From IMG/VR virus record IMGVR_UViG_2617270967_000014: 40,547 bases of DNA; one strand, 5' to 3'. This DNA is from a virus (Duplodnaviria > Heunggongvirae > Uroviricota > Caudoviricetes). Positions within the stretch are counted from its first letter, which is position 1. Every line of letters starts with the position of its first letter. A program made the position numbers. Positions 27,001 to 33,000 of the stretch are shown piece after piece.

Positions 27001-30000
27001 TTTTCGAAATTCCTGTTCGGGCCAAAAAACGTCGATGCCTGCTGAACAAATTCAGTTCCCGCTTTCCCGGTAGCCTCCAGGTATCTTGCGTAACGCCTCA
27101 CGCCATCCAGCACGACATCCGGTGACACCCCTTCGCGTAATCTGGCCCTCCAGGCATTGAACGCGGATTTCTTCGGGTTTGACCCTGCCCGATGCGGATA
27201 TTCACGCCAGACCCGTTCGAACACGTCAGGATAATCAACTCGTCCCGCAGACGGTCCCGGCATCGCCCGGGTTAACCCAATCGGCTTCCCGCTCATCGCG
27301 GAATCGGCTTCAGGCTGCTGCGGTTGGCGTTGTTGCTCCGGTTCGACGATCAGCACCTGCTGCACACAACGCCCGGAATCTGCTTCCGGTGTCGTGCCAG
27401 CTGGTCCTGGACGTTCAGTCAGAACAGGACAAAAATCCCCCTGTGGGTCCGTGGCGATTTTTTCGCCATGGACCAGAAGGGTTTTATCCCTTTCCTGTTC
27501 TTGTTCCTGTTCCTGTTCTTGGCTTGAAAGGGGCTCTGAAGGGGCTTCAATTTTCCGACATGATTCACGTCTGACATCCAGGTGGAAATCATCCTTATAT
27601 CTATCATAAAAGGATGATAAAAAAGGATTTTCCAGCAACGCGGAATATTCATTTCTTACCCCAGCACAACGGTTATCGCCAGGTTTCAGCGATTCACCAA
27701 CCTGCCATGCTGCCATTTCATGCACCCATACAACCTCAGAATCATGGTCATAGCTGCAAAAACCAGCCTCGCAAGCCATTTGAAGCCCCTTAGAAGCCCC
27801 TTCAGGATCAAGTCCGGTTTCGTGAGCAATGTACAAAACAGGCAGGTAATAAAGGCCCAGCATATTGGAATGAGGCGAGGTCATCATATACAACGCCACT
27901 ACCATACTTTCCGGACCAGACTTCCTTAGTTTTCGCCCTGTATCGCCTAACCAGAACTGAGGTGAAATTGTTGCGTAATTACGCATAGTCCCCTCGCATA
28001 CAAGATTTACTCCATACCGCAGACGGTCCCGGTATCTCCCGGGTTAACCCAATCGGCTTCAGGCTGCTGCGGTTGGTGTGACTGCACATTGGTGTGACTG
28101 CACATCTTCACAGACGGTCCCGGTATCTCCGGGTTAACCCAATCGGCTTCAGGCTGCTGCGGTTGGTGTTGTTGCTGGCGAAATTCTTCCAGATGTGGCA
28201 GAATTATTCCCGTGTATTGCTCCATGCCCTGCCTGAATATCAGATGTTCATCAGGATTTGCTCAGAACGTCCGGCCCCAACCGGACGTTTTTTATTTGCA
28301 TGAACGTTAATGGCATGCTGGAAAGCCCGGCTGATCGGACTGATATCAGATGCCATCTGGAACGCGCATAAAATCGCCGCGATGTATCGCCAGTCGGTAC
28401 GACTGACCTTCGATTCATGGCAGCCAATCATCTTCGCCAGTCCCCTTTGCGTCAGAGCTGACAGGTTGATAAGTAAATCCGTTTCAGCGCGATCGATATC
28501 GCGCTGTGACAGTTTGCTGTAACTTGTTTGTGACATTTGTTAATTTTCCTATATTGATATGGGGTTAAGCGGCAATCCCCAATGGGTTTGCCACTGATGT
28601 TTGCTCACCCTGTTAGAGGTGAACGACCAGCAATGTTAAAGAGCGGTGTTACTTATTCAGCCTGGTTCGGATGAGGAAACAGGTGCGGTAAGTCCGGGCG
28701 AATTTCGTAAGCCTTAACCTGACCATTGGTGGCATTAACGATAGCGAAAACTTTTTCAGGAGAAACTTTTCCGCCTCGCAACCATTTATGAACAGCGGGC
28801 TGTGATACGCCGCAATCAGCTGCAAGTCGTTTTTGACTGCCAACAATATTCAAGGCTCGCTGAATCACTAAATTCATGAGCATACCTCTACAGCAAATAA
28901 AGCATAACCAAAAATAACATGAGTTATACACCAGGGCAATAACAATTGTTGTTTTACTTTTGATAACCGTGGTTATAGATTACAGGTATGAAAACATTCG
29001 CAGAAAGACTAAATGCCGCCATGAGTTCAGCCGGGTTGTCACAAGCACAACTTGCAGACATGGTGGGGGTATCACAACCAGCCATACAAAAGATGTCATC
29101 TGGTAAAACAACCGGATCACGTAAAATGGTCGAATTAGCCAACGCGTTAAGAGTTCGCCCTGAATGGCTAAGCTCTGGTATAGGGTCAATGAGACCACAG
29201 AGCGCAGAAGAGCCATCTAATGCTCGGGAATCATCTTTAAAAGCTATCGCCTGGGATGATCATCAAAATGATAATGAAGAATTTGTTGCGCTCCCCCTTC
29301 TAAATATTTCACTTTCAGCTGGCGGAGGAAGTTGTGCATTGGAGGAGTCCGCAGAATTCTCTCTAGTTTTTAGGCGCTATTACCTGAAAAAAATGGGAGT
29401 TCCAGAAAAAGCGGCAAAGTTGGTCAGGGTTGTTGGGCAAAGCATGGAGCCAACACTCCATGATGGTGATGTGGTGGGGGTAAACACGCAAGATACGAGC
29501 ATCAGGGATGGTAAAACATATGCAATTTGCCAAGCTGATTTGTTAAGGGTAAAAACGCTCATAGCCACGCCAACATCGGTAATTATCAGATCGATAAACC
29601 GCGAAGAGTATCCTGATGAAGTAATGAACAGAGAAGAATTCTACAAAAACGTAAGAATCATAGGGCGAGTGTTCTGGTCATCACATAGCTGGTAATCAGA
29701 CTCCAACTGAACTTTTGCTATAAGAACACTCACGAAGAACGGCCTTTTATTGTGCTCAATACCACCGATGGTAAACCATTCGCCAAGTAGCCAATTCATA
29801 AAATGCCATTTCTAAATCCCCCCGGCTCCAGTGCCGGGTTTTATTTACTTAATTACACAGTCGCATATCCTGAAGTAACACATCTATAGCTAACTTCACA
29901 GCGAGATCATCCAATTCATCATGGTGAAGCACTCGGATCATTCCCGCAATAGCATCTGCTGAAATAGCTTCCCCAGTAGCAATAACCTCAAGCAACGACA

Positions 30001-33000
30001 CCCCTAGAATTTCGACTACCCGCTGGTGCAACACACCAAATTCCCCTTCGATTAACATGCAATCACCCATAACAATCAGCCTTTCCCCCTTGAAAATATC
30101 ACGCGGATACCACAAAAAATAAAATATTTTTGTTATCAGTCATTTATAACGTTTTTCATAAAATGATAAATATAGTTATTGCACAACCAGATAACTTAGG
30201 TTATCTTCAATTCAACAGCAGGACGCTGGAAGCCAAACGGAACAGATTGGCCGGCTCTTTAACATTGATGGACTCTCAACCTAACCGTTGAGACCAAAAT
30301 CTAAGTGGTTTTGGGGATGACGCGAATTTCAGTTGCAAGGCCGCGATCGAGAAGAAAAACACCTCGACGCGTCATACACCAAAGCCACTTAAAGGAGACC
30401 ATCATGGTAACCATAATCTGGAAAGAATCCAAAGGTACGGCAAAAAGCCGCTATAAAGCTCGCAGGGAAGAACTTATTGCAGAGCGGCGCAGTAGTGAAA
30501 GACTGACACGGAAGATTGCGCTAAAGATCTCTGGTTGCGTCGGAGCAGACAAAGCAGTATCACTCGGAAGCCTTCGCTGCAAGAAGGCAGAAGAAGTCGA
30601 GAGTAAACAGAACCGTATTTACTACCGCAAACCACGCAGTGAAATGGGTGTGACTTGCTCAGGCCGCCAGAAACAACGCGGAAAATCAATTCCGGCTTAT
30701 TACGATTGAGGTTAATGATGAAGTTCAAATTGAACGATGAAGTTAAATGGTCAAGCTCATCAAACGGTGTAACGAAGGTAAAAATCGGGTTTATCGTCGA
30801 GGTGATTCCTCCTGGTGTCAACGTAAAAAAATTCGAACTAGGCCGTCTGCTAGATGCACCTGGCCTTCCGAGGAAAGAAGAGAGCTATATAGTTTGTGTA
30901 GGTTCAAGACCCGGATCTCGTGCCAAGCCAAAATATTACTGGCCGCGAGTTAATAACCTGCGTCGATTACAACAAAAAACTTGCGCCCTTAAAACTTGAA
31001 ATTCTTCAGGCCGCCGGAAAAATGCAGCTTAAACTGGACGAATTCATCGACTGTATGGATGAAATGAATAAAGCAGTTCAGAAGCTTAAAGAGCTGACCG
31101 CCTGATATTAATAAATTGCAACTACCGGAGTTAACTATGAATGAAACAGAACTGAAGCACATTATCGCCCTGCTTCTGGAAGATGCCAGACAGGTTTATC
31201 GACTTAGCCCAAATTCCGCAACGCAGGAACGCATCCGGATAGCGGAAACAGCACTGAAACAGGACAATGGAAACGGCATATCCAAATTTAGCGCCGCCAG
31301 TGAAAATGAAGTAATAGAAATAAACAGCAATATCAGCGACAGTTGCGTCGCTTACAGCCACCAAATAATTCGTGTAAGTGCAAGAATAATGGAAGTGATG
31401 GCAAGTGAGCTTGAAAAGAACAACATCAAGCCCACTGATTGTTGTTTAAGAACCGTAATGAACGTTATTTATTACTCGATGTTCCGAAGTCGCTAACAGC
31501 GTCGAGTTTTTCATTAAAAAATGATTCAAATGCATCGTAAAATACGGCAATAGCACCGCCCTTATCTACCGCGGCAGGAACTGCCTTTTGAGGTATATCT
31601 TTCTCCGTAAATTGTGTGTTGTAAGTATCGACAGCCAGCCGCATCAGAAACATCACTTTTTCTTCTTGTGTCATAAATTCACTCTCCTTACGGGGTTTGT
31701 AGTTGAGGAGTTCTCCACGGGTGAGGTGGAGATCGTGCGCCGGACACGGGTGAGTTCCTGCACTCTCAGTTTACTGAACAGACATTACCCTGAAAGCCAG
31801 GGTACTACACGAAAGCGCGAGGCGAAGACTCTTTCCCATAGAAGGATTGTCGTTAGATTTCTTCGACCGTGCGCTTCCGGTTGTGAATAACAACATTGCT
31901 GTGTGTAACCCTTGGCGGATATCGGTTTGCCGATTGCTGATGTCCGCCCTTTTTAAAGTGAATTTTGTGATGCGGTGAATGCGGCTATGCGCACGCGGAA
32001 CAGTTAAACCGACAGGATGTCACGGAAAGTCATCGTCCCCTGACCCGGCGTTAGTTGTTAACTGGTTAACGTCACCTGGAGGCACCAGGCACCGCATCAA
32101 CAAAGTTCATTTGTGAAAATGGAGATAATTATGATTGCTCATCACTTCGGAACTGATGAAATACCACGTCAGTGCGTGACGCCTGGCGATTATGTTCTTC
32201 ATGAAGGTCGGACATATATCGCTTCAGCAAACAATATTGAAAAGAGAAAACTCTATATTCGTAACTTCACAACAAAAACATGCATTACCGACTGCATGAT
32301 TAAAGTTTTCATCGGGCGCGATGGCTTACCCGTAAAAGCAGCGTCGTTGTGACGAGTAATAAAATACCCCTTCCATATCTGTAACAGACAAGCCGAAATA
32401 AAACCGCATTAATTATCAATCACGGAAAAATCAAAATGAAAGAACTTGCGCAAAATGAAATATTTTCCAAAACCAGTCCTGATGCAATAAATGAACTCAA
32501 AGAAATTGCAGAACGCATCAGTAAAATATGCAAAGAATACAAAATCGACTTTGTATTTTCTTTTTCAGTGCTTACAGAAGTTGGAAATAACGAATATAAG
32601 GACAGTCGTTTTGTTTTATGTGGGTTAAATGGCAAAACACCAAGCCCATATATTCATGCTGCACGTGAAGTTGTCAGAAGCAACATTGGAGTACAACAAA
32701 TCCATACACTTGCACAGGCTCTTGAGTTTGCAAGAGAAAATTCTGAGTGCGACTGCCCTGAATGCCAGCACGAAAAGGGAAAAACAACTCACAAAACAGC
32801 AAACCAGGCAACCTTCCACTGAAATAAAAATCCGGCAGCGCAGGCTACCGGATTTCTCCCTGCGTCACCGTATTCGGAGAAATCAGACAAAGGGCCGCTA
32901 ATTCTAATCCAGCCAGAGGTTTAAATACAATGAGCGCTGATAAACAGACTTTTGCACTACACTGCGAAGCAAAAAACGATAAAGTCAGAAAACGCCTTGG

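Follow-up and report, generated by a model that had tools for sequence, protein, structure and literature searches.

It is established for lambdoid N proteins that the arginine-rich motif of N and the loop of the boxB hairpin are coupled by class. The phage 21 class was reportedly defined in the 1980s (by Franklin, in 1985), and the complex of the phage 21 N peptide with boxB (PDB 1NYB) is said to be the work of Cilley and Williamson in 2003. In lambda, boxA reads CGCTCTTA, boxB consists of a 5-bp stem with the pentaloop GAAGA at nutL and GAAAA at nutR, and the N motif is MDAQTRRRERRAEKQAQW. P22-type boxB elements read GCGCU-GACAA-AGCGC at nutL and CGCC-GACAA-CGCGG at nutR and go with the motif GNAKTRRHERRRKLAIERD; for P22 and phage L, the same argument from motif and loop as is used here has been made previously (PMC8022706). 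In 1NYB, the N peptide is bound to phage 21 boxB RNA with the hexaloop CUAACC, the first and last bases of which form a C-C pair (PMC12550061). The DNA considered here is the virus record IMGVR_UViG_2617270967_000014 from IMG/VR, a stretch of 40,547 nucleotides that is referred to as the window. It contains a pair of boxA-boxB sites on opposite strands that are, with high confidence, the nutL and nutR sites of a lambdoid Escherichia coli prophage and part of an early antitermination module of the phage 21 class.

Both sites carry the 14-mer GCTCTTTAACATTG, which has only two exact copies in the 40.5 kb, at 30254-30267 (+) and 28631-28644 (-), oriented divergently; an identical boxA-like sequence at both places had already been noticed in a sequence-only reading of the window. 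The 11-nt boxA core GCTCTTTAACA lies at 30254-30264 (+) in nutL and at 28634-28644 (-) in nutR, where it aligns with boxA-L and boxA-R, respectively, of the annotated phage 21 genome (OL657228). We take this core to match the E. coli rrn boxA consensus TGCTCTTTAACAA; rrn antitermination requires neither a phage N protein nor an N-specific boxB loop. The boxB of nutL occupies 30274-30293 (+) and is composed of TCTCAAC (30274-30280), CTAACC (30281-30286), and GTTGAGA (30287-30293), i.e., a 7-bp stem with the hexaloop CUAACC (fold of -9.5 kcal/mol, z -3.7). The boxB of nutR occupies 28603-28624 (-) and is composed of GTTCACCT (28624-28617), the loop CTAACA (28616-28611), and GGGTGAGC (28610-28603), which as RNA gives an 8-bp stem (GUUCACCU/GGGUGAGC) with the hexaloop CUAACA (-11.5 kcal/mol, z -4.4). 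The near-identical 6-nt loops described in the sequence-only reading are borne out, both hairpins fold stably, and the pairing it gave for the nutR stem (TCACCT/GGGTGA, 28622-28617/28610-28605) is correct, although the stem extends to 8 pairs rather than 6. Its gap of 7-10 nt between boxA and hairpin has to be replaced by 6 nt when measured from the end of the 14-mer, or 9 nt when measured from the 11-nt core, at both sites (spacers TTGATGGAC and TTGCTGGTC).

The stems of the two hairpins are unrelated (TCTCAAC versus TTCACCT), while the loop, the polarity of the stem, and the spacing from boxA are kept. This combination is what is expected if N recognises the shape of the hairpin plus the loop, and it is the strongest internal evidence for such recognition. 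With regard to position, nutL lies about 40 nt past the putative start of the PL transcript and 110 nt upstream of N, and the PR transcript carries nutR in the interval separating cro from cII. The earlier proposal that the two sites form a nutL/nutR pair that would be read by a single N protein agrees with their position and strand, with boxA and boxB, and with the N gene nearby.

The likeness of nutL and nutR might also be a coincidence devoid of function, for which only the short length of the elements speaks, and the probability of which is effectively nil. An exact pair of 14-mers stands against about 0.3 matches expected even at 2 mismatches (the mean in shuffled sequence, with <=2 mismatches allowed, was 0.34), and the hairpins follow at the identical spacing of 9 nt. 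An unguided repeat search of 28560-30320 returned the boxA pair as its first-listed inverted repeat, with arms of 25 nt at 28620-28644 and 30254-30278 that are 84% complementary. In the whole window, a CTAACN loop is closed by a stem of 5 pairs or more in just three hairpins; when the sequence was simulated 300 times under a first-order Markov model, such hairpins with a stem of at least 6 pairs occurred at a mean of 0.22 per window, and two or more were found in 1.7% of the runs. The third hairpin, with a CTAACA loop at 23812-23831 (+), was rejected as a nut site, being antisense within hok and about 300 nt away from the nearest boxA-like string. Two further boxA-like strings, at 5277-5287 (-) and 31094 (-), were also rejected, as no CTAAC hairpin comes after them. 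As a negative control, species-representative genomes were scanned with the nutR boxB string TCACCTCTAACNGGGTGA, which gave 38 matches; 36 of these were chance matches in unrelated phyla, none accompanied by a boxA, and the remaining two were real sites of the classic phage 21 type, in Shimwellia and in a metagenome-assembled genome labelled Oxalobacter. In addition, the sites are conserved in dozens of phages at the same map position.

The N gene (30404-30709, +) encodes a protein of 101 aa whose N-terminus reads MVTIIWKESKGTAKSRYKARREELIAERR and whose arginine-rich motif, ESKGTAKSRYKARREELIAERR, spans residues 8-29. In a search of solved structures, these residues corresponded to chain A of PDB 1NYB (ESKGTAKSRYKARRAELIAERR) with 21 of 22 positions identical, the sole mismatch being A22E, an acidic residue within the arginine-rich motif. 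The same search matched residues 62-98 to lambda N in the antitermination complex 6GOV. PHROGs places the protein in phrog_271, "anti-termination protein N-like" (E 7.6e-35), and its Shine-Dalgarno sequence (AAGGAG, 30392-30397) and start codon agree with those of the annotated phage 21 N. RefSeq labels it only as "hypothetical protein" in the E. coli prophages with the identical sequence. The gene is a mosaic: the stretch comprising nutL and the first ~100 codons is 97% identical at the DNA level to PA28 and the Stx1a phages, the match to PA28 ends at position 30625 of the window (the two N proteins are 73.7% identical overall), and the 3′ end (30501-30712) matches HF4s, N7, and mEpX1 instead. 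The C-terminal tail, QKQRGKSIPAYYD, is common to gp24 of Salmonella phage L and resembles phage L and HF4s, not phage 21.

For a comparison of classes, boxA, boxB, and N were extracted from eleven phages and set beside those of the window. The motif GTAKSRYKARR and CUAACN loops occur together in seven of the eleven (phage 21, VT1-Sakai, PA28, mEpX1, phiv205-1, mEp235, and HK629) as well as in the window, whereas GNAKTRRHERRRKLAIERD occurs with GACAA loops in Stx2_EH1965, Salmonella phage L, and Cronobacter ENT47670, and lambda has its own motif with GAAGA at nutL. N motif and boxB loop hence co-segregate as three classes, those of phage 21, P22, and lambda. Membership in the lambda class was rejected, because the loops, the stems, and the motif of the window all differ from the GNRA-like GAAAA/GAAGA pentaloop, the GCCCU/AGGGC stem, and MDAQTRRRERRAEKQAQW, to which the motif of the window is unrelated. 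The P22 class was likewise rejected by comparison with phage L, Stx2_EH1965, and ENT47670, the GACAA pentaloop and GNAKTRRHERRRKLAIERD being absent from the module. The sequence-only reading had proposed a specificity class different from that of lambda; such a class does exist, but it is the already characterised phage 21 class, which had not been recognised as such, and the identification follows from the CUAACC hexaloop of 1NYB together with the match of the N motif. On the basis of sequence identity and class co-segregation, N would be expected to bind these hairpins and to discriminate against the boxB of lambda and P22.

Features other than motif and loop cross the class boundaries: the different motif/loop classes have in common their boxA, their layout, and portions of the C-terminus of N. 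P22 and phage L gp24, as well as Stx2_EH1965 and ENT47670, have the same layout as the window and a near-identical nutL boxA (GCTCTTTAAC); in this group, the N-leader hairpin is homologous as well, and C-terminal parts of N are held in common with the window as mosaic segments.

A DNA search against phage genomes gave, for the segment from nutL to N, 97% identity to PA28, 06-3462, and the Stx1a-converting phage series, and approximately 90% identity to phage 21, lambda imm21, DE3, mEpX1, mEp235, HK629, and VT1-Sakai. From cro through nutR to cII, the identity is 100% with PA28 and the Stx1a phages, against 84-87% with the phage 21 group. PA28, 06-3462, the Stx1a-converting series (LC6454xx), and VT1-Sakai are the Stx-phage relatives among the closest known systems; at the 3′ end of N, the window has a different mosaic segment (for which PA28 was compared). 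In VT1-Sakai (AP000400), the homologous sites are annotated as "putative N-utilization leftward/rightward" and the N protein as "similar to bacteriophage phi-21 N"; its nutR has a truncated boxA (GCTCTTTCATC) and a CUAACC loop. Outside the phage records, chromosomal prophages of E. coli FORC_069, NCCP15648, FORC_043, and others match 28500-30720 with 100% identity, and of 5426 complete genomes of E. coli, 977 contain parts of this region.

Variation within the phage 21 class was surveyed by scanning IMG/VR for boxA followed by CTAAC, which yielded 120 loci. The boxB of nutL was identical in all 27 phage-21-type nutL sites from IMG/VR and the annotated phages, the window included. On the other hand, nutR occurs in three forms. 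The first is the classic one with the loop CUAACC. The second, that of the window, combines CUAACA with an extra G-C pair and is also found in PA28, in Stx1a-converting phages, and in two IMG/VR contigs; in HK629, the CUAACA loop sits on the stem of the classic form. The third form, that of a subgroup, has an internal mismatch in its stem (C/A or A/A); the N protein of this subgroup (MATIIWKEAKGTAKSRYKARRAAKIEQ...) retains no more than the first half of the motif, and the subgroup's nutL boxB is the same. The hairpins are thus conserved in related phages in both the eleven-phage and the IMG/VR comparisons, and non-conservation was the outcome that the sequence-only reading had named as speaking against its proposal.

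Among the sampled loci, A22E and CUAACA were found together in all four that hold both features, the window included. It might be thought that N A22E, a CUAACA nutR, and a CUAACC nutL make up a co-adapted micro-variant with unequal affinities of N for nutL and nutR; if so, it would tune leftward versus rightward antitermination, or N autoregulation. This is unlikely. HK629 pairs CUAACA with the canonical phage 21 motif, so linkage within one immunity module is the likelier and simplest reading of the association.

Several observations weigh against the assignment to a functional phage-21-type N-nut module. No compensatory stem changes were found within the phage 21 class in the 120 IMG/VR loci; within-class covariation gives no support to the hairpins because the boxB of nutL does not vary and none of the nutR variants is compensatory. 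The Pfam match of N to N_peptide is below threshold (20.3 bits versus a cut-off of 27.9); the N call was settled instead by PHROGs and the search of PDB sequences. In the nutR loop of the window, the last base is A, whereas that of the solved phage 21 loop is C, so that the loop is altered at a base that is paired in the complex, and A22E changes the charge of the RNA-binding motif. The last two points, together with the fact that the window is a chromosomal prophage and that many E. coli prophages are defective, could mean that the sites are genuine phage-21-type nut sequences that are no longer used, either in a cryptic prophage or because the A22E form of N is inactive. This, too, is very improbable: the window holds an intact N reading frame with its Shine-Dalgarno sequence, and the leader hairpin, the two nut sites, the operators, and the genes cI, cro, and cII are likewise undamaged; the identical nutR/cro-cII segment and an A22E N recur in PA28, in 06-3462, and in the genomes of over ten Stx1a-converting phages that were deposited as complete; and HK629 has a CUAACA nutR along with the canonical phage 21 motif.

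It could also be argued that the hairpins are mainly other RNA elements, such as an intrinsic terminator, a Rho-loading site (tR1), or an RNase processing site, and that the loop is common to both merely by descent. In the annotation of the lambda record, rutA and rutB flank the nutR boxB, and in the window a second conserved hairpin (28568-28596) comes after nutR and a long hairpin of the processing type after nutL. However, neither boxB is followed by a T-run (nutL continues with CCAAAATC and nutR with AAACATCA), on which account they are not intrinsic terminators, and a terminator scan made no call at the coordinates of either boxB. Common descent leaves unexplained why the stems are wholly different and yet the loop is kept; moreover, the structure of the phage 21 N peptide was determined in complex with this loop, and the roles in question are compatible with being a nut site. 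This alternative as a whole is extremely improbable. A search of Rfam at gathering thresholds gave nothing at the nut sites, which is uninformative, since Rfam has no nut family. The reading of the two sites as nutL and nutR of the phage 21 class is preferred.

For these nut sites, a mechanism can be inferred by homology, including actual binding by N, dependence on the host Nus factors, and the identity of the terminators overridden; each of its steps has been established in lambda and phage 21. The PL transcript (+, starting near 30214) and the PR transcript (-, from the OR region near 28900) would each carry boxA and, 9 nt later, boxB. The boxA would serve as the binding site of host NusB and NusE (ribosomal protein S10), and the CUAAC(C/A) hairpin would be bound by the arginine-rich N-terminal helix of the prophage's own N. 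The latter would remain bound to RNA polymerase by its C-terminal region, along with NusA and NusG, and would allow the enzyme to read through downstream terminators into the delayed-early genes. Candidate intrinsic terminators on the transcribed strands are located downstream at 32993-33011 (+) and at 23619-23602, 21052-21033, and 19438-19417 (-).

Past the boxB of nutL and ahead of the ribosome-binding site of N, the leader contains a long and very stable hairpin at 30302-30391 (+); for the leader as a whole (30214-30420), the folding energy is -68.2 kcal/mol (z -5.4). Four leaders of the phage 21 class and one of the P22 class retain the helix, with four pairs changed on both sides, and lambda holds the corresponding arms, GGCTTTGGGGTGTGTG and CACACACCACCAAAGC. 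Lambda has an N-leader hairpin that is sensitive to RNase III and takes part in the autoregulation of N from nutL, and the hairpin of the window is probably its counterpart.

The hairpin past nutR is on the minus strand (GUGGCAAACCC-AUUG-GGGAUUGCCGC) and lies just beyond the boxB and before the cII ribosome-binding site. Its counterpart in related phages is a hairpin of another sequence (e.g., GCAGACC/GGTCTGC in L033), and the equivalent stretch of VT1-Sakai is annotated as a putative Rho-dependent terminator. On the opposite strand, a strong terminator-like hairpin with a T-run (28264-28291, +) overlaps the 3′ end of cII, at the position of the lambda oop RNA terminator; an oop-like feature is annotated at the equivalent place in HK629.

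The surrounding immunity region (28000-31200) has the gene order P/O/cII/cro/cI/N, according to the map of open reading frames (ORFs) and Pfam. On the minus strand, these are a DnaC-like replication gene (26157-26897), homologous to the "putative replication protein DnaC" of mEpX1; a replication-initiator gene in the position of lambda O (26904-27986); cII (28240-28536; Pfam Phage_CII, E 6.5e-26), which is the first gene downstream of nutR; and cro (28653-28877; Pfam YdaS_toxin, HTH_3, and P22_Cro; phrog_35), upstream of nutR on the PR transcript. The cI-type repressor (HTH_3 and Peptidase_S24) is encoded on the plus strand at 28988-29695; past its end lies a hairpin that carries a T-run (29821-29838, +). 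Between cI and PL, and opposite to both, lies an ORF of 88 codons (29849-30115, -) that is assigned to phrog_3946, a family of unassigned function, and has no Pfam match. The PL promoter (30179-30214, +) was inferred by reading the sequence and by alignment to the annotated pL start of phage 21, with a putative -35 element TTGCAC (30179-30184), a putative -10 element TATCTT (30202-30207), and a start near 30214; a consensus promoter scan did not call it.

Operator-like palindromes of the pattern ATAACNNNNGTTAT are situated at OL (30166-30179 and 30191-30204) and, with a spacing of 24-25 bp, at OR between cro and cI (28914-28927, 28939-28952, and 28963-28976), where PR is directed towards nutR. 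The window contains six matches to this pattern versus 1.1 expected, five of which are at OR or OL. These operators define an immunity specificity unlike that of phage 21, despite the phage-21-like N-nut module.

Some other features of the window were recorded in passing. Directly after N is an ORF of 94 codons (30715-30999; phrog_11941, function unassigned). In mEpX1 (4815-5147) and mEp235 (4809-5147), both of which have a phage-21-type N-nut module, the gene directly after N is that of a Nun-like termination factor. An ORF located between cII and the replication gene (28007-28225; phrog_2751, function unassigned) contains two copies, at 28020-28079 and 28111-28169, of a unit of about 60 bp, CAGACGGTCCCGGTATCTCC(C)GGGTTAACCCAATCGGCTTCAGGCTGCTGCGGTTGGTGT, and a diverged copy is found at 27248-27330 within the O-like gene; these may represent a partial duplication or origin-related repeats. 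Above the Rfam gathering score, a block of C4 antisense RNA, isrK, and c4-a1b1 is duplicated at 20191-20389 and 21776-21974 (-), approximately 1.6 kb apart, and single matches were obtained for the sok antitoxin (which adjoins hok), STnc100, and sRNA-Xcc1, with listed coordinates 23838-24012 (-), 16844-17049 (-), and 3335-3420 (+).

The result confirms the N gene call, fixes the directions of the PL and PR transcripts, and assigns the module to the phage 21 class. Its importance beyond annotation is small, and nothing suggests a new mechanism; the nutR loop variant and A22E are natural variants that could be used in a study of binding specificity. In phage 21 (OL657228), boxA-L, nutL, boxA-R, nutR, the pL start, and N are annotated at homologous positions, the boxA core is the same GCTCTTTAACA, and the nutL boxB is identical base for base to that of the window. 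The phage 21 nutR reads TTCACCT-CTAACC-GGGTGAG; the window retains TTCACCT/GGGTGAG and differs in the last (sixth) loop base, which is A instead of C, and in a stem that is one pair longer. The phage 21 N motif, GTAKSRYKARRAELIAERR, agrees with that of the window at 21 of 22 residues, and the full-length N proteins are 83.5% identical, with differences in A22E, in several residues at 30-45, and in the C-terminal tail. The cI, cro, and operators are not those of phage 21. The pair of sites was thus correctly recognised, but the system is already known: there is no departure from the N-nut system of phage 21 except for the nutR loop base and A22E, both of which, judging from the sequences compared, are common to phages that have already been sequenced.

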